Origin: Ilumatobacter sp.
Lineage (GTDB): Bacteria; Actinomycetota; Acidimicrobiia; Acidimicrobiales; Ilumatobacteraceae
Length of the DNA: 64,000 nt
Direction of reading: 5' to 3'
Assembly (NCBI GenBank): GCA_045106645.1
Contig: JBGCEY010000039.1
Coordinates: 1,701 to 65,700, forward strand
Below are positions 36,485 to 42,705 of this stretch, one piece after another; within the stretch, counting starts at the first letter, position 1; each line of letters starts with the position of its first letter. The notes below the pieces were generated by a model. It was not told the DNA's origin. It worked only from the letters and a program-made list of their open reading frames with translations, and searched no databases. The position numbers were made by a program, and so were the translations under genes.

Positions 36485-36547
36485 CGTCCTGATGAACTGG
36501 CGGCGATGTGGCGCGCGTCGGACGGCGCCTCACATAGTGTCGGGCTC

Positions 36548-37837
36548 GTGACCACCACGATCGATCTTGCCGAACGCTACCGGGCGGTGTTTCCCTCCTG
36601 GTTGTCGCCCATGTTCGACGAGCCGATCTCGATCGACCACGGAGACGGCGGCTACGTGTGGGACCTGGAAGGTAATCGCTACCTCGACTTCTTCGGCGGT
36701 GTGCTCACGACCATGATCGGTCACAATCAACCCGAGGTCACCGAAGCGGTGCAAGCCCAGGCTGCCAAGGTGATGCACTCGTCCACGCTGTATCTCAACG
36801 ACGAGATGATCAGTTTTGCCGAGGAGATCGCAGCCGTGTCGGGAATCGCCGATGCGCGTGTGTTCTTCACGGCGTCGGGCTCCGAAGCCAACGAAACCGC
36901 ACTGCTGTTGGCGGCGAGCTTCCGTCAATCGAATCAGGTGCTGGCCGTGCGCAACAGCTACCACGGTCGCTCGTTCGCAACGCAAGCCATCACGTCGCAT
37001 TCGTCGTGGCGTTCCAGCAGTGTGTCCGGCCTCGACGTGAGCTTCGTGCAGGGCGGCTACCGCTTGCGCAGCCCCTTCAAGGACCTCGACGATGATGCCT
37101 ATACGCAGGCCTGCTGTGACGACCTCGAACAGATCCTGGACATGACCGCAGCGGGAGATGTGGCGTGTCTGATCGCCGAGCCGATCCAAGGCGTCGGTGG
37201 ATTCGCGACCCCGCCCGACGGCTTCTTCGGTCAGATGCACAAGCTGCTCGCAGAGCGCGGCATTCTCTTCGTGAGCGACGAAGTGCAGACCGGATGGGGT
37301 CGCACCGGCGATCACTTCTGGGGATATCAGGCGCACGACATCGTCCCCGACATCATCACCTTCGCCAAGGGTGTCGGCAACGGCGCTGGCTTGGCTGGGG
37401 TGGTTGCTCGGGCGGAGGTGATGGACACCATCAAGGTCGCATCGTTCTCCACGTTCGGGGGCAACCCGCTCGCTGCCGCTGCGGGTCGTGCCACGCTGCG
37501 TCACGTGCTCGACAACGACTTGCAGTCGAACGCGAAGCTCATGGGCGAGCGTTTCTTCGCTGGGTTGCGGCCCGCTACCGACGCAGCACCGTGGATCGGC
37601 GAGCTGCGCGGCCGCGGGCTGATGGTCGCCATCGAGACCGTGCACGACGACAGCGTCCACCCCGACAAGGCCAAGGCTGCGGCGCTCGCCGACGGCTGCA
37701 AACAGCGTGGCCTGCTCGTCGGCAAGGGTGGGCTCTATGGCAACGTCGTACGAATCGCACCGATGCTGAATGTGTCCGCATCGGAGATCGACACCGCCGT
37801 CGAGATCATCACCGACACGATCCGCAACATCAACTGA
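36548..37837 (+). CDS. Class III PLP aminotransferase (beta-alanine/beta-aminoisobutyrate transaminase-like)
   Basis: WDLEGNRYLDFFGG, AEPIQGVGG, SDEVQTGWGRTG and TFAKG motifs; first gene of the pyrimidine operon. Confidence 0.9.
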   Translation: MTTTIDLAERYRAVFPSWLSPMFDEPISIDHGDGGYVWDLEGNRYLDFFGGVLTTMIGHNQPEVTEAVQAQAAKVMHSSTLYLNDEMISFAEEIAAVSGIADARVFFTASGSEANETALLLAASFRQSNQVLAVRNSYHGRSFATQAITSHSSWRSSSVSGLDVSFVQGGYRLRSPFKDLDDDAYTQACCDDLEQILDMTAAGDVACLIAEPIQGVGGFATPPDGFFGQMHKLLAERGILFVSDEVQTGWGRTGDHFWGYQAHDIVPDIITFAKGVGNGAGLAGVVARAEVMDTIKVASFSTFGGNPLAAAAGRATLRHVLDNDLQSNAKLMGERFFAGLRPATDAAPWIGELRGRGLMVAIETVHDDSVHPDKAKAAALADGCKQRGLLVGKGGLYGNVVRIAPMLNVSASEIDTAVEIITDTIRNIN

Positions 37838-37858
37838 ATGCCCACCCGAGGGAGACAC

Positions 37859-38701
37859 ATGTCAAACGTCATCAAGGCAGCGCTGTTCCAGACCGACTGG
37901 ACCGGCGACAAGGAATCGATGATCGTCAAACACGAGCAAGCAGCTCGTGATGCGGCGGCCGACGGAGCGCAGATCATGTGCTTCCAGGAGCTGTTCTACG
38001 GCCCGTACTTCTGCCAGGTTCAGGACGCGCAGTACTACGAGTACACCGAGTACATCCCGGATGGTCCGACCACGAAACGGTTCCAGGCGTTGGCCAAGGA
38101 ACTGAACATGGTGCTCGTGCTGCCGATGTACGAAATCGAACAACCCGGCGTGTACTACAACACCGCAGCGGTCGTCGACGCCGACGGCAGCTACCTCGGC
38201 AAGTACCGCAAGCAGCACATTCCTCAGGTGCAGGGGTTCTGGGAGAAGTTCTACTTCAAGCCAGGTGACGGGGGCTACCCCGTGTTCGACACGGCGGTCG
38301 GCAAAGTCGGCATCTACATCTGCTACGACCGCCACTTCCCGGAGGGATGGCGAGCGCTCGGCCTGAACGGTGCCGAGATCGTGTTCAATCCATCAGCCAC
38401 CCACCGTGGACTCTCCGAGTACCTGTGGAGTATCGAACAGCCAGCAGCGGCATGCGCGAACATGTACTTCGTGGGTGCGATCAACCGGGTCGGAATCGAG
38501 GACCTCGGCGAGAACGACTTCTACGGCCAGAGCTACTTCGCCGACCCGCGAGGGCAGTACGTCGGCGACAAAGGTGATGCCCACGCGCCCGAACTGATCG
38601 TGCGTGATCTCGATCTCGATCTGATCCGCGAAGTGCGCGACGGCTGGCAGTTCTATCGAGACCGCCGCCCCGAGGCCTACACCGAACTCACCGAGTACTG
38701 A
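37859..38701 (+). CDS. Beta-ureidopropionase (nitrilase family)
   Basis: E-K-C triad: FQELF, YRKQHIP...FWEKFYF, ICYDRHFPEGWR. Confidence 0.9.
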   Translation: MSNVIKAALFQTDWTGDKESMIVKHEQAARDAAADGAQIMCFQELFYGPYFCQVQDAQYYEYTEYIPDGPTTKRFQALAKELNMVLVLPMYEIEQPGVYYNTAAVVDADGSYLGKYRKQHIPQVQGFWEKFYFKPGDGGYPVFDTAVGKVGIYICYDRHFPEGWRALGLNGAEIVFNPSATHRGLSEYLWSIEQPAAACANMYFVGAINRVGIEDLGENDFYGQSYFADPRGQYVGDKGDAHAPELIVRDLDLDLIREVRDGWQFYRDRRPEAYTELTEY

Positions 38702-38712
38702 GGAGACACGAC

Positions 38713-40128
38713 ATGGCGACCACACTCATCAGCGGCGGAACCGTGGTGTCCGCAATCGGTCGGCGTGAAGCCGACGTACTCATCGACGGCGAATCGATCG
38801 CTGCGATCATGGCGCCCGGGCACGCCGCGTCCTACGGCATCACACCTGACGTCGTCGTCGACGCCACCGGCAAGTACGTCGTGCCCGGTGGTGTGGATGC
38901 TCACGTCCACATGTCCCTGCCGTTCGGTGGCACCGTGTCCGCCGACGACTTCGACACGGGGTCGCGCGCAGCAGCATGGGGTGGCGTGACCACACTCGTC
39001 GACTTCGCCTCGCAGCAGGTCGGCCAGGATGTTCGCGAGACGCTCGCCATCCGCCACGAAGAAGCAGCCGGCGAGTGCCACGTCGACTACGCGTTTCACC
39101 AGATCATCGGCGACGTCAACGAGCAGTCGCTCGAAGCCATGTCGCACCTGGTCGCGAACGAGGGCATCACCAGCTTCAAGATGTTCATGGCCTACCCGGG
39201 CGTGTACTACTCCGATGACGGCCAGATCCTGCGAGCGATGCAGAACGCATCGGAATCGGGCGGCCTGATGATGATGCACGCCGAGAACGGCATCGCGATC
39301 GATGTGCTGGTGGCCCAGTCCCTCGCTCGCGGCGACACCGACCCGAAGTATCACGCGTACACCCGACCCGAAGAGCTCGAATCCGAAGCCACGCACCGAG
39401 CGATCAAGCTGGCGCGCGTGGCGGGCAACGTGCCGCTCTACATCGTGCACATGTCTGCGTCCGAAGCACTTGAAGAGGTGTCGCGAGCTCAGCAGATGGG
39501 CCTCAACGTGTTCGCGGAAACCTGCCCGCAGTACCTGTACCTGTCGATCGAGGATCACCTCGCCCAGCCAGGCTTCGAAGGTTCGAAATGGGTCTGCTCG
39601 ACTCCGCTGCGGTCCAAGCACGAGCACCATCAGAAGGATCTGTGGAAGGGCCTGCGGATGAACGAGTTGGCGGTCGTGTCGACCGACCACTGCCCGTTCT
39701 GCATGAAGGACCAGAAGGAGTTGGGTATCGGCGATTTCTCCAAGATCCCGAACGGCATGGGTGGTGTGGAGCACCGCATGGAACTGATCTATCAGGGCGT
39801 GGTGATGGGGGAGATGACCCTCGAGCGCTGGGTGGAAACCTGCTGCACCACACCGGCGCGGATGTTCGGACTCGACAAGAAGGGTGTGCTCGAGCCCGGT
39901 GCTGATGCCGACGTGCTCGTGTGGGACCCGAACGGGGTCACCCACATCGGCGTGGACGGTAAGCACCACATGAACATGGACCACTCCTCATACGAGGGGT
40001 TCACCGTTGACGGCAAGGTCGACACGGTGCTGTCGCGCGGTGCCGTGATCGTCCAGAACGACACCTACCTCGGCCGCAAGGGCCACGGCCAATTCGTCAA
40101 ACGCGGCCTCTCCACGTACCTCCACTGA
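38713..40128 (+). CDS. hydA: Dihydropyrimidinase
   Basis: PGGVDAHVH, SFKMFMAY, MHAEN, YIVHMS, STDHCPF and KIPNG motifs. Confidence 0.93.
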   Translation: MATTLISGGTVVSAIGRREADVLIDGESIAAIMAPGHAASYGITPDVVVDATGKYVVPGGVDAHVHMSLPFGGTVSADDFDTGSRAAAWGGVTTLVDFASQQVGQDVRETLAIRHEEAAGECHVDYAFHQIIGDVNEQSLEAMSHLVANEGITSFKMFMAYPGVYYSDDGQILRAMQNASESGGLMMMHAENGIAIDVLVAQSLARGDTDPKYHAYTRPEELESEATHRAIKLARVAGNVPLYIVHMSASEALEEVSRAQQMGLNVFAETCPQYLYLSIEDHLAQPGFEGSKWVCSTPLRSKHEHHQKDLWKGLRMNELAVVSTDHCPFCMKDQKELGIGDFSKIPNGMGGVEHRMELIYQGVVMGEMTLERWVETCCTTPARMFGLDKKGVLEPGADADVLVWDPNGVTHIGVDGKHHMNMDHSSYEGFTVDGKVDTVLSRGAVIVQNDTYLGRKGHGQFVKRGLSTYLH

Positions 40129-40140
40129 CAGGCTTCAGTC

Positions 40141-41625
40141 ATGAATCGCATCTCGCACTGGATCGACGGCAAGGTCGTCGAGTCCACCTCTGGTCACTCG
40201 GCACCGGTCTATGACCCTGCCACTGGCGAGCAGACCGGAGCACTCGACTTGGCATCGGTCGCCGAAGTCGATGCCGCGGTCGCAGCAGCCAAGTCAGCAT
40301 TTCCCGCATGGCGTGCCACGTCGCTGTCCAGGCGCTCCGAGGTGATGTTCCGCATGCGCGAACTCGTCGACGCGAACCGCAAGGAGATCGCGTCGCTCCT
40401 CACTGCCGAGCACGGCAAGGTGCTGTCGGACTCGCTGGGTGAGGTGGCACGCGGTCTGGAGAACATCGAGTTCGCATGTGGGGTTCCGCAACTGATGAAG
40501 GGTGACTACTCCGAGCAGGCTGCGTCAGGCATCGACGTGCACTCCATCCGCCAGCCGCTCGGTGTTGTCGCCGGGATCACTCCGTTCAACTTTCCGGCGA
40601 TGGTCCCGATGTGGATGTTCGCCAACGCGCTTGCGTGCGGCAACACCTTCGTACTCAAGCCGAGCGAGAAGGACCCGTCGGTCACGATGCTGCTTGCCGA
40701 GCTGCTGGCGCAGGCAGGTCTTCCCGACGGCTGTTTCAACATCGTCCACGGCGACAAGCTCTCGGTGGACCGGATCCTCGATCACGTCGACGTGGCCGCG
40801 GTGAGCTTCGTGGGCTCCACGCCCATTGCCGAATACATCTACGAGACCGGCACCGCCAATGGCAAGCGTGTCCAGGCGCTCGGCGGAGCAAAAAACCACA
40901 TGCTCGTCCTCAACGATGCTGACGTCGCCATGGCTGCAGACGCCGCCGTGGGCGCAGCGTTCGGGTCGGCTGGCGAGCGGTGCATGGCCATCAGCGTCGT
41001 GCTTGCTGCGGATGGCATCGCTGACGAACTGGTCAACGAGATCGCCAAGCGAATCCCCGACATCAAGGTCGGCAACGGCAACGAACCCGGAAACGAGATG
41101 GGGCCGCTCATCACCGCGGAATCCCGCGACCGCGTGAAGGGCTACATCGATGCCGCTCCCGAAGAGGGCGCAACGGTCGTGGTCGATGGGCGTGAGAACC
41201 TTCCTGCGGATGGATACTTCGTGAACCCGACGCTGCTGGACAACATCACCACCGACATGGCCTGCTACACCGACGAGATCTTTGGCCCGGTGCTCGGTGT
41301 GATGCGGGTGTCCGGGTATCAGGAGGGCCTCGAGATCATCAACGCGAACCCGTATGCGAACGGCACGGCGATCTTCACCCGCGACGGCGGGGCCGCTCGC
41401 CAGTTCCAGTTCGAGGTGCAGGTCGGCATGGTCGGCGTGAACGTGGCGGTGCCCGTCCCCGTGAGCTACTACAGCTTTGGTGGGTGGAAGGCGAGTCTGT
41501 TCGGCGACACCCACATGTACGGCCCCGAGGGCATCAACTTCTACACGCAGGGCAAAGTCATCACGAGTCGGTGGCCGGACCCCGCAACCAGCACCGTGGA
41601 GCTCGGCTTCCCCGAAACCCGTTGA
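40141..41625 (+). CDS. mmsA: (Methyl)malonate-semialdehyde dehydrogenase, CoA-acylating
   Basis: TPFNFPAMVPMW, SFVGST, GAKNH, GERCMA, EIFGPV and FGGWKASLFGD motifs. Confidence 0.93.
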   Translation: MNRISHWIDGKVVESTSGHSAPVYDPATGEQTGALDLASVAEVDAAVAAAKSAFPAWRATSLSRRSEVMFRMRELVDANRKEIASLLTAEHGKVLSDSLGEVARGLENIEFACGVPQLMKGDYSEQAASGIDVHSIRQPLGVVAGITPFNFPAMVPMWMFANALACGNTFVLKPSEKDPSVTMLLAELLAQAGLPDGCFNIVHGDKLSVDRILDHVDVAAVSFVGSTPIAEYIYETGTANGKRVQALGGAKNHMLVLNDADVAMAADAAVGAAFGSAGERCMAISVVLAADGIADELVNEIAKRIPDIKVGNGNEPGNEMGPLITAESRDRVKGYIDAAPEEGATVVVDGRENLPADGYFVNPTLLDNITTDMACYTDEIFGPVLGVMRVSGYQEGLEIINANPYANGTAIFTRDGGAARQFQFEVQVGMVGVNVAVPVPVSYYSFGGWKASLFGDTHMYGPEGINFYTQGKVITSRWPDPATSTVELGFPETR

Positions 41626-41676
41626 CAACCAGTGAAGAAGTGCCTGGCACTTCTTCACCGCACAAGGAGACGCACG

Positions 41677-42705
41677 ATGGACATTGGATTGGTACTTCAG
41701 ACAACGCCCCCGGCAGCGCGCACGATCGACTTGGCCAAGCGTGCAGAGACCTACGGCTTCAGCAACGTGTGGACGTTCGACTCCCACATCCTGTGGCAAG
41801 AGCCGTACGTCATCTACTCCCAGATCCTCGCCGAGACGCGCAACATCACGGTTGGCCCCATGGTCACCAACCCGGCAACGCGCGACTGGACCGTCACGGC
41901 CTCCACGTATGCGACGCTCAACGAGATGTACGGCAACCGCACCGTGTGCGGTATCGGCCGCGGCGACTCTGCCGTGCGGGTGACCAACGGCAAGCCGACC
42001 ACGCTCAAGACGATGCGCGAATCCGTGCACGTGATCCGCGAGCTGGCCAACGGCCGCAGCGTCGACTACAACGACTCGACCATCACGCTCCCGTGGGCGG
42101 CCAAGAGCACACTCGAAGTGTGGGGTGCCGGATACGGACCCAAGGCACTCAAGATGATCGGTGAGACCTGTGACGGCTTCATTCTGCAACTTGCCGACCC
42201 GCAGATCACCGAGTGGATGATCGCTGCCGTGCGCTCGGCAGCAGTTGATGCGGGCCGTAACGCCGACGACATCACCATGTGTGTGGCCGCTCCGGCATAC
42301 GTCACCAATGGAAGTGCCGAGGCACTGGAACACGCACGCGATCAGACCCGCTGGTTCGGTGGCATGGTCGGGAACCACGTTGCCGACATCGTCGATCGGT
42401 ACGGAGCCGATGCTGGCGTTCCCCAGGCGCTCACCGACTACATCGCAGGTCGGAAGGAATACGACTACAACCAGCACGGCAGCGCGGCGAGTGAGCACGT
42501 GGACTTCGTGCCCGACGACGTGATCGATCGGTTCTGCATCCTCGGCTCAGTCGACGAACAGCTGGCACGTTTGAACGAACTGAGAGCGCTCGGGGTCGAT
42601 CAGTTTGCTGTGTACCTCCAGCACGACGCGAAGGATCACACGCTCGCCGAGTACGGCGAGAAGGTCATTCCGGCGTTGGCGGAACAAGCCCTCGCGAAGC
42701 AGTAA
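41677..42705 (+). CDS. LLM-class, probably F420-dependent, oxidoreductase (TIGR03842-like)
   Basis: WTFDSHILWQEPY, GPMVTNPATRDW, GIGRGDSA and ILQLADP; context next to hydA matches my recollection of this family. Confidence 0.85.
   Translation: MDIGLVLQTTPPAARTIDLAKRAETYGFSNVWTFDSHILWQEPYVIYSQILAETRNITVGPMVTNPATRDWTVTASTYATLNEMYGNRTVCGIGRGDSAVRVTNGKPTTLKTMRESVHVIRELANGRSVDYNDSTITLPWAAKSTLEVWGAGYGPKALKMIGETCDGFILQLADPQITEWMIAAVRSAAVDAGRNADDITMCVAAPAYVTNGSAEALEHARDQTRWFGGMVGNHVADIVDRYGADAGVPQALTDYIAGRKEYDYNQHGSAASEHVDFVPDDVIDRFCILGSVDEQLARLNELRALGVDQFAVYLQHDAKDHTLAEYGEKVIPALAEQALAKQ

Follow-up and report, generated by a model that had tools for sequence, protein, structure and literature searches.

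The reductive breakdown of pyrimidines is a textbook pathway, and the operon described here, from an Ilumatobacter sp. genome, holds genes for its second to fifth steps in a single run without a PydA gene, and with an LLM-class oxidoreductase gene instead. Which enzyme, then, would reduce uracil or thymine in the first step? We propose that the LLM protein, a member of the TIGR03842 family, is probably an F420H2-dependent uracil/thymine reductase that replaces the unrelated PydA. No biochemical, knockout or expression evidence supports this assignment, and because no activity has been measured, the enzymatic claim remains an inference; our literature search found no paper claiming F420-dependent uracil/thymine reduction for a TIGR03842 LLM protein. 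The operon as a whole is likely to encode a complete reductive pyrimidine route, with a first enzyme drawn from a family different to the known ones.

Gene calls and profile searches place five tightly packed genes, all on the + strand, at 36506-42705 of the window (the whole 64,000-nt stretch of DNA that was analysed), in agreement with the preliminary description, which had recognised a five-gene pyrimidine operon containing an LLM oxidoreductase. The first gene (36506..37837) encodes a class-III, GabT-like aminotransferase (PF00202, 314 bits) whose best NCBIfam matches are all below the cut-offs; among solved structures it most resembles GABA transaminases and related racemases. It is probably a PydD-like beta-alanine/beta-aminoisobutyrate aminotransferase, a substrate inferred from context only. 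Among the Ilumatobacteraceae relatives, only some have the aminotransferase upstream of the CN-hydrolase. The operon start was previously put at 36548, which lies 42 nt inside the aminotransferase reading frame; the difference is immaterial.

The CN-hydrolase gene (37838-38701; PF00795, 219 bits) begins directly after the aminotransferase stop. The closest solved structures of its product are Drosophila beta-alanine synthase (2vhh, 4e-57), N-carbamoylputrescine amidohydrolase and human beta-ureidopropionase (6ftq, 2e-52), with D-carbamoylases matching more weakly (~1e-28). It reaches no curated NCBIfam cut-off (aguB, 254 versus 410) and is probably the beta-ureidopropionase, fulfilling the PydC function. 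A gap of 11 nt separates it from the dihydropyrimidinase (PydB) gene (38713-40128; TIGR02033, 521 bits versus a cut-off of 393), which is followed after 12 nt by a gene for a CoA-acylating malonate/methylmalonate-semialdehyde dehydrogenase (40141-41625; TIGR01722, 707 bits versus a cut-off of 448). The last gene (41677..42705) encodes the 342-aa TIGR03842 LLM-class F420-dependent oxidoreductase (564.1 bits versus a cut-off of 295.45).

The absence of preTA, noted earlier for the operon, holds for the entire assembly, which is 94.7% complete: profile searches with PF01180 and PF14691 found no PreT/PreA-type gene within the operon or elsewhere. PF01180 matches a single protein, a 298-aa PyrD encoded next to carB, and PF14691 likewise matches only GltD, adjoining GltB. 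A search for F420 biosynthesis genes, which the preliminary description had named as a check, also came out in favour of its reading, with CofD (296 bits versus 257), a fused FbiC (434 versus 374) and CofE (250 versus 181) all above their cut-offs. Approximately 33 ORFs in the genome match an LLM profile built for this analysis, and 16 of the 19 paralogues that were scanned exceed the cut-offs of F420-class families, so that the genome encodes at least 16 other F420-class LLM proteins. Weighing against the proposal, no source of F420H2 was identified: there is no Fno in the genome and no Fgd among the 19 paralogues scanned.

The LLM gene is single-copy in the genome. Its longest ORF begins with a GTG at 41632, and an ATG at 41677 is preceded by an AAGGAG site; the latter is almost certainly the true start, and the database copy of the protein (P0001) is likewise 342 aa long. 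The 27 positions in front of the ribosome-binding site, 41632..41658, form a perfect 13+13 nt palindrome, GTGAAGAAGTGCC T GGCACTTCTTCAC, which lies downstream of the semialdehyde dehydrogenase stop and has a folding energy of -23.1 kcal/mol (z = -3.4). No T-run follows it, and a terminator scan was negative at this site. We considered it as an LLM-specific regulator and rejected this because its 19-nt core occurs in 46 copies across the genome; it is one of the copies of a dispersed, REP-like element rather than a signal specific to this operon.

The protein covers the TIGR03842 profile in full (positions 1-329 of 329), and its only Pfam match is PF00296. Its AlphaFold model (pLDDT 88.8, pTM 0.90) has an F420-type fold: a Foldseek search with the model returned Mer at ranks 1-8 and Fgd, Adf and Fgd2 at ranks 9-29, with FMN enzymes appearing later. 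Sequence and fold searches concur, the nearest structures being Mer, followed by Fgd, Adf and hydroxymycolate dehydrogenase, F420 users without exception, and FMN-dependent LLM enzymes rank below the F420 enzymes in both. Mer models themselves match the protein below their cut-offs (PRK02271, 136 versus 276; TIGR03555, 122 versus 349).

In the proposed route, for which substrate, reaction direction, binding and use of F420H2, and chemistry are all inferred, the LLM protein would bind F420H2 and a hydride would pass from C5 of F420H2 to C6 of uracil or thymine, an active-site acid then protonating C5 to give 5,6-dihydrouracil or dihydrothymine. Dihydropyrimidinase would open the ring, and the CN-hydrolase would release beta-alanine or beta-aminoisobutyrate together with NH3 and CO2. 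The aminotransferase would convert these amino acids to malonate or methylmalonate semialdehyde, from which the CoA-acylating dehydrogenase may form acetyl-CoA or propionyl-CoA.

We surveyed 401 Actinomycetota genomes for both genes. TIGR03842 is present in 82 of them (45 genera) and TIGR02033 in 116, and 81 of the 82 TIGR03842 genomes also carry a dihydropyrimidinase-family gene (Fisher p = 2e-55, uncorrected for phylogeny). The sole exception is a 600-contig assembly with its LLM gene at a contig edge. The two genes lie at most 5 kb apart in 64 genomes, a number that rises to 70 at 10 kb. Gene maps of 20 loci from 18 family-level groups were drawn by GC3-guided ORF picking and tblastn, as picking the longest ORF misannotates high-GC loci. 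Across these loci the gene order is shuffled and the linkage is kept, with the orders CNh-DHP-LLM, CNh-AT-DHP-MMSDH-LLM, LLM-CNh-AT-DHP-MMSDH and CNh-LLM-DHP (CNh, CN-hydrolase; DHP, dihydropyrimidinase; AT, aminotransferase; MMSDH, semialdehyde dehydrogenase). Some clusters contain LLM, dihydropyrimidinase and CN-hydrolase alone, exactly a PydA-B-C set. At E <= 1e-50, a PreA-like gene is missing from all 82 LLM-positive genomes; however, PreA was found in only one of the 401 genomes, and being nearly absent from the phylum it cannot discriminate within Actinomycetota or show the anti-correlation with PreTA that the preliminary description proposed. CofD was detected in 43 of 45 LLM-positive genera (the exceptions being the genomes G127 and G193) versus 25 of 35 LLM-negative genomes (p = 0.004).

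It is possible, though unlikely, that the LLM protein acts at another redox step of the pathway and that the ring is reduced by an unlinked, unrecognised enzyme. Candidate reactions are the F420-dependent reduction of either semialdehyde, malonate or methylmalonate, to its 3-hydroxy acid, which is the reaction of PydE or RutE, and oxidation of a 3-hydroxy acid. Such a role would suit the company that the protein keeps, since Adf, Fgd and hydroxymycolate dehydrogenase, among its structural neighbours, are characterised F420-dependent LLM alcohol/carbonyl oxidoreductases, and the LLM gene directly follows the semialdehyde dehydrogenase gene in the window and in most Ilumatobacteraceae. It would, however, be superfluous beside the CoA-acylating dehydrogenase encoded in the same operon. 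It also fits poorly with four minimal clusters (L122, L131, L132 and L140), in which LLM, dihydropyrimidinase and CN-hydrolase occur with neither aminotransferase nor semialdehyde dehydrogenase, and under it the first step would have no enzyme in any of the 81 genomes with both LLM and dihydropyrimidinase, none of which contains a recognisable first enzyme.

The 35 genomes with a dihydropyrimidinase and no LLM gene bear on the nature of the substrate. At the 20 such loci that were examined, neither a CN-hydrolase nor a semialdehyde dehydrogenase gene was found nearby (0/20), and an aminotransferase gene was found at one (L161, cut at a contig end). In a tree of the dihydropyrimidinases, at least 12 of these 20 fall into separate, well-supported clades, whereas 17 of 20 LLM-linked enzymes are found in one clade apart from the purine-type enzymes; the enzyme of the window is also placed there, outside the clades of purine-cluster (HyuA-type) enzymes. 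In seven LLM-negative loci that were scanned, the neighbours include genes for a Mo-hydroxylase FAD subunit, a YgeW-like carbamoyltransferase and an SsnA-like amidohydrolase, and these neighbourhoods represent the reductive route of uric acid breakdown reported in PMC12507026. Counting against the proposal, three dihydropyrimidinases of the Pyd clade stand without an LLM gene (G313, G186 and G324, the last at a contig end).

These data also weigh on the idea that the LLM protein reduces some other unsaturated N-heterocycle, such as a modified pyrimidine or a hydantoin-type compound, in place of uracil or thymine, and that the product of that reaction is the true dihydropyrimidinase substrate. 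TIGR02033 enzymes do serve hydantoin and uric-acid routes as well (PMC12507026), and the NCS1 transporters encoded beside proteobacterial clusters carry varied nucleobases and hydantoins. Moreover, a distant LLM gene, its product 27% identical to that of the window, adjoins a TIGR02033-family dihydropyrimidinase homologue in two genomes, G109 and G371; the homologue of G109 falls in a separate LLM-negative clade. We nevertheless consider a substrate of this kind improbable, as the beta-ureidopropionase-like CN-hydrolase, the GabT-like aminotransferase and the TIGR01722 dehydrogenase fit beta-alanine and beta-aminoisobutyrate specifically, and most LLM-linked dihydropyrimidinases share a clade that stands apart from the purine-type enzymes.

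The association between LLM and pyrimidine genes is not confined to Actinomycetota but extends into Alpha- and Gammaproteobacteria, which lends support to the preliminary reading of the LLM protein as the pyrimidine reductase. Nine proteobacterial loci were analysed. In eight, the LLM gene lies directly after cofG-cofH-cofD-cofC-cofE-fno, and in the ninth it adjoins cof genes. The cof-fno-LLM cassette is itself adjacent to genes for a dihydropyrimidinase and an M20 hydrolase in four of the nine (Leisingera, Cohaesibacter, Marinobacterium and Pseudovibrio); in the other five there are no pyrimidine genes within 10 kb. The M20 hydrolase is a non-homologous type of PydC, and the clusters sometimes add an aminotransferase, an NCS1 transporter or an ABC transporter. 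No PF01180 gene occurs within 10 kb of any of the nine LLM loci, a statement limited to the loci and not extending to the whole genomes.

Such proximity to cof genes in all nine loci would also be expected if the LLM protein helped to make or maintain F420, say as a reductase of dehydro-F420-0, and its linkage to pyrimidine genes were incidental. The Ilumatobacter CofE, a stand-alone ligase domain without the C-terminal nitroreductase domain of FbiB, is compatible with this notion. We hold it to be very improbable, given that the 25 LLM-negative Actinomycetota genomes with CofD include five from the order of the window, that in Actinomycetota the LLM gene sits in pyrimidine clusters and accompanies a dihydropyrimidinase gene in all LLM-positive genomes but one, and that in the Ilumatobacter genome itself it lies on another contig (C33) than cofD and cofE (C89) or fbiC (C1). 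Least credible of all is an FMN-dependent oxygenase that cleaves the pyrimidine ring oxidatively in the manner of RutA, the LLM-fold enzyme that acts on uracil in the Rut pathway: for all the likeness in fold and substrate, no RutA family is among the 23 NCBIfam matches of the protein (E <= 0.001), FMN-dependent LLM enzymes match it well below the F420 enzymes, the remaining operon requires dihydropyrimidines and not ureidoacrylate, and the proteobacterial copies are operonic with cof-fno.

Returning to the F420H2-dependent uracil/thymine reductase, we lean towards a broader interpretation, in which TIGR03842 represents a type of dihydropyrimidine dehydrogenase that has so far gone unrecognised, one that works as a single subunit, lacks Fe-S clusters and depends on F420H2. 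It would be the standard entry into pyrimidine catabolism in much of Actinomycetota, and the mobile cofGHDCE-fno-LLM cassette of marine Alpha- and Gammaproteobacteria would mainly supply this one reaction. A 2021 review of F420 listed its role in Proteobacteria and Chloroflexi as unanswered (PMC8498797); if true, our interpretation would answer why marine Alpha- and Gammaproteobacteria make the cofactor. Validation would fill the missing first step and extend the LLM/F420 enzyme family to a new type of reaction. It would also assign F420 a defined housekeeping function in aerobic bacteria, allow genome-scale metabolic models of the carrier groups to be corrected, and provide a metal-free ene-reductase for N-heterocycles.

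Among known proteins, Mer (PDB 1z69, 8qpl) is the closest relative of the LLM protein both in sequence (E = 1e-50, full length) and in fold (TM ~0.8). It has 29 of the 60 residues that are invariant in TIGR03842, and these probably constitute the F420-binding scaffold. The other 31 invariant positions are specific to TIGR03842 and include a Y262-D263-Y264 insertion that is absent from Mer. Glu6 of Mer, the residue mutated in PDB entry 8qq8, is not kept, aligning with Val6 of the LLM protein in the profile alignment. The contexts differ too, Mer belonging to C1 metabolism and the LLM protein to pyrimidine catabolism.

A parallel is found in the uric-acid clusters of Chloroflexota, for which a putative F420-dependent 'yanthine reductase' has been suggested on bioinformatic grounds only (PMC12507026). 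There, too, a luciferase-family F420 enzyme would take the place of a DPD-like reductase (UacX/YgfK), and the pathway, again a reductive one acting on an N-heterocycle, likewise employs a TIGR02033-type hydrolase. That pathway, in contrast, is one of purine degradation with a different proposed substrate; its reductase is likewise uncharacterised.

The extended Pyd pathway comprises, after PydA, PydB, PydC, the beta-alanine aminotransferase PydD and either the malonic semialdehyde reductase PydE or a dehydrogenase. The window shares its second to fifth steps, all co-operonic, and has the LLM gene instead of PydA; its PydC is of the CN-hydrolase type, whereas that of the proteobacterial clusters is of the M20 type. 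The known first enzymes, namely PydA, PreT/PreA and the ferredoxin-dependent PydAc (EC 1.3.1.1 / 1.3.1.2; PMC7332683), catalyse the reaction that is proposed for the LLM protein, yielding 5,6-dihydro products from uracil or thymine, and occupy the same position, both along the Pyd pathway and within Pyd gene clusters. They combine a DHO_dh-like FMN domain with Fe-S clusters and draw electrons from NAD(P)H or ferredoxin. The LLM protein has no homology to them: it is a single-domain luciferase-like TIM barrel without a match to any Fe-S or FMN-domain family, and its proposed hydride donor is F420H2.

Scans of the window for open reading frames and protein families place five plus-strand genes, spaced 0 to 51 nt apart, in one operon: a class-III aminotransferase (36506-37837; PF00202), a CN-hydrolase (37838-38701; PF00795), a dihydropyrimidinase (38713-40128; TIGR02033, 521 bits, cut-off 393), a CoA-acylating (methyl)malonate-semialdehyde dehydrogenase (40141-41625; TIGR01722, 707 bits, cut-off 448) and a luciferase-like (LLM) oxidoreductase (41677-42705; TIGR03842, 564 bits, cut-off 295). 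The pyrimidine operon of the preliminary description is confirmed. We consider it probable that the LLM protein reduces uracil and thymine, as had been proposed, which would be a non-homologous replacement within a known pathway; the activity is inferred from convergent comparative evidence, with no enzymology. Another heterocycle cannot be excluded as its substrate, although the downstream enzymes fit beta-alanine and beta-aminoisobutyrate. The aminotransferase is GabT-like, and the solved structures nearest to the CN-hydrolase are beta-alanine synthase and beta-ureidopropionase, with D-carbamoylases less close.

Translation of the LLM gene most likely starts at the ATG at 41677, downstream of an AAGGAG site, giving 342 amino acids, as in the identical database entry (P0001). 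A scan of the operon for promoter or terminator consensus gave nothing above chance, and unrelated genes flank it on the two sides (DUF389, a DUF2867 protein, a ferritin-like protein, cbiB/cobD and a P-type ATPase). In Ilumatobacteraceae relatives (loci L021, L023-L027 and L034) the dehydrogenase stop and LLM start overlap (TGATG), which suggests translational coupling, interrupted in the window by a REP-like insertion. The palindrome concerned, AGAAGTGCC[A/T]GGCACTTCT, is perfect and has longer arms at 41632-41658; it has 46 copies in the 4.3-Mb assembly (e.g. C1:130090 and C48:2029) and is apparently a REP-like hairpin element dispersed through this Ilumatobacter-like genome. Other palindromes occupy the same intergenic gap in relatives. 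Elsewhere in the genome, 43 residues encoded at G000:C65:23215-23343 match the C-terminus of the semialdehyde dehydrogenase in the window at 72% identity; the stretch, ~2.4 kb away from a further aldehyde dehydrogenase gene, may be the relic of a gene.

The LLM protein had been proposed to stand in for PreT/PreA, missing from the operon, and in the assembly (4.34 Mb, 97 contigs, 94.7% complete) the absence extends to the genome. The sole PF01180 protein is a 298-residue dihydroorotate dehydrogenase encoded directly downstream of carB, so that no PreA-type gene was found, and the sole PF14691 protein is GltD beside GltB, leaving no PreT-type gene. A DHO_dh-like domain is common to PreT/PreA, fused PydA and PydAc (PMC7332683), and the genome therefore encodes none of them. 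F420 biosynthesis is encoded, by genes scoring above their cut-offs: CofD (296 bits, cut-off 257), FbiC as a fused 818-residue frame (434 bits, cut-off 374) and CofE (250 bits, cut-off 181). About 33 frames match an LLM profile built in this analysis, and 16 of 19 scanned paralogues exceed cut-offs of F420-class families. Since Fno (TIGR01915) was not found in the genome and no Fgd occurs among the 19 scanned paralogues, the source of F420H2 remains unidentified. CofE consists of the F420-0:gamma-glutamyl ligase alone and lacks the C-terminal nitroreductase domain of FbiB (fetched locus L087, 1498-2487, minus strand; G000:C89:56421-57158), and a Fic-domain gene comes after it; if F420 is made here via dehydro-F420-0, the dehydro-F420-0 reductase is unidentified.

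The closest relatives of the LLM protein, 71-88% identical, belong to Ilumatobacter and other Ilumatobacteraceae (Acidimicrobiia). Across ~80 Ilumatobacteraceae loci the usual order is CN-hydrolase, dihydropyrimidinase, semialdehyde dehydrogenase, LLM; the upstream aminotransferase is present in only some, and in some the LLM gene directly follows the dihydropyrimidinase gene. Among 401 evenly drawn Actinomycetota genomes, TIGR02033 exceeded its cut-off in 116 and TIGR03842 was found in 82 (45 genera), 81 of which also carried TIGR02033; the exception, whose LLM gene lies at a contig edge, is an assembly of 600 contigs. Both genes lie on one contig in 75 genomes, at most 5 kb apart in 64 and at most 10 kb apart in 70. 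In 20 loci from 18 family-level groups the LLM gene sits among pathway genes in shuffled order; by computation alone, no sign of a shared pathway is stronger than linkage that outlasts rearrangement. Some of these loci are minimal clusters of LLM, dihydropyrimidinase (PydB) and CN-hydrolase (PydC), which a role on a semialdehyde or 3-hydroxy acid would leave unexplained; being redundant with the co-operonic dehydrogenase as well, that role is unlikely. PreA (NF006183) was above cut-off in none of the 82 LLM carriers, to be read against its near-absence from the whole sample (just 1 of 401).

Dihydropyrimidinase occurred without the LLM family in 35 genomes, and 20 of their loci were fetched. 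None of the 20 contained a homologue of the window's CN-hydrolase or semialdehyde dehydrogenase, an aminotransferase was seen only in L161, cut by the contig end, and in most the dihydropyrimidinase is just 35-46% identical to the window's. Among the neighbours scanned in seven loci are a Mo-hydroxylase FAD subunit, a YgeW-like carbamoyltransferase, a MobA-like protein and SsnA-like amidohydrolases; this combination corresponds to the reductive uric acid pathway, whose HyuA is a TIGR02033 member (PMC12507026). In a maximum-likelihood tree of 40 dihydropyrimidinases, 17 of the 20 LLM-linked sequences form one clade (support 81/72, branch not starred), the remaining three make up two small separate clades, and at least 12 LLM-negative sequences fall in separate, well-supported clades. 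The LLM label changes 6 times on this tree versus 13.8 in shuffles, with none of 500 shuffles as low. Exceptions are Pyd-clade dihydropyrimidinases standing alone (genomes G313 and G186), loci that stop at contig edges (G324 and G340) and a different LLM, with 27% identity to that of the window, beside a dihydropyrimidinase homologue (G371 and G109). All recognisable Pyd-type clusters examined carry TIGR03842, and none a known PydA. The different LLMs (L160, G371:C43, 3152-4108; L156, G109:C142, 11521-12546) are PF00296 proteins beside TIGR02033-family homologues, without a TIGR03842 scan; an SsnA-like amidohydrolase follows in L160, and the other neighbours in L156 were outside the scan. Both are Actinomycetota candidates for the F420-dependent 'yanthine reductase' put forward for Chloroflexota in PMC12507026.

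When plasmids were searched by protein, TIGR03842 members of 40-42% identity turned up on replicons of Leisingera and Paracoccus. The annotated order in Leisingera caerulea is cofG, cofH, cofD, cofC, cofE, npdG (Fno) and then LLM, divergent from pntAB, an aminotransferase, a Zn-dependent (M20) hydrolase, hydA (dihydropyrimidinase) and an NCS1 nucleobase symporter. Seven further contexts came from relatives of the Leisingera protein, making nine loci in all: the cof-fno-LLM cassette recurs in Cohaesibacter, Marinobacterium (a gammaproteobacterium), Pukyongiella, Pseudovibrio, Hoeflea and Shimia, and an LLM copy adjoins cof genes in Roseisalinus. In four of the nine (Leisingera, Cohaesibacter, Marinobacterium and Pseudovibrio) an amidohydrolase of dihydropyrimidinase size and an M20 hydrolase lie next to the cassette, sometimes with an aminotransferase and a transporter, and no PF01180 gene occurs within 10 kb in any of the nine. 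F420 dependence is strongly implied, since LLM shares one operon with the cofactor pathway and the NADPH-linked reductase of that cofactor; because PydC here is a non-homologous M20 enzyme, LLM tracks the pathway and not one gene family. A function in F420 biosynthesis itself would account for these operons, but we give it very little credence: actinobacterial copies sit in pyrimidine clusters, and CofD occurs without LLM in 25 of the 35 LLM-negative Actinomycetota genomes, five of them from the same order.

The pntAB transhydrogenase genes (L164, plasmid NZ_CP081074.1, 5245-8271) sit between the Leisingera cof-fno-LLM operon and the pyrimidine genes, and their product could supply NADPH to Fno for the pathway. 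In the Rhodobacterales loci of Shimia (L171) and Roseisalinus (L172) the cassette adjoins Mo-hydroxylase (xanthine-dehydrogenase-like) genes, not pyrimidine genes; Roseisalinus also has a CN-hydrolase and a second LLM in the cof operon. Contigs of two MAGs labelled Candidatus Azotimanducaceae and Gammaproteobacteria (L013, JBLIKS010000129.1; L015, JBLIMF010000025.1) carry a CN-hydrolase, dihydropyrimidinase and LLM 80-91% identical to the Ilumatobacter-like ones. A search for phylum relatives of the L013 genome gave the sampled Actinomycetota genomes, so it seems that either the NCBI labels are mistaken or the bins are mixed.

No paper that connects F420 or TIGR03842 with pyrimidine reduction came up in full-text literature searches. 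The nearest published idea is the F420 luciferase-family 'yanthine reductase' suggested for Chloroflexota uric-acid clusters (PMC12507026), and a 2021 review, in which uracil is nowhere mentioned, leaves open what F420 does in Proteobacteria and Chloroflexi (PMC8498797).

A profile of 73 family members matched Mer over its full length (E = 1e-50), followed by F420-dependent hydroxymycolate dehydrogenase, Adf and Fgd1, with FMN enzymes far weaker, and the fold ranking of an AlphaFold model (pLDDT 88.8, pTM 0.90) agrees. A RutA-like oxygenase is contradicted by family, fold and context alike. Thirty members from both phyla, 40-72% identical, share 60 invariant columns. Judged from the alignment, the 29 common to Mer, including a V-T-N segment and a G-x-G-D motif, are probably cofactor scaffold; the other 31 are family-specific, including S36, W40, R95, S98, R101, Y153, Q171, W226, N233, H234, Y242, R259, H267 and an insertion, Y262-D263-Y264, that is lacking in Mer. 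In the profile alignment Val6 stands opposite Glu6 of Mer, the residue mutated in PDB entry 8qq8. These features therefore describe a Mer-like F420 enzyme whose substrate pocket is different and polar, its residues not placed in three dimensions. F420H2-dependent LLM-type reductases that saturate the dehydroalanine C=C in lanthipeptides are a precedent for reducing an amide-conjugated double bond, and the F420 potential, about -340 mV, is near that of NAD(P)H, the driving reductant of the known enzymes.
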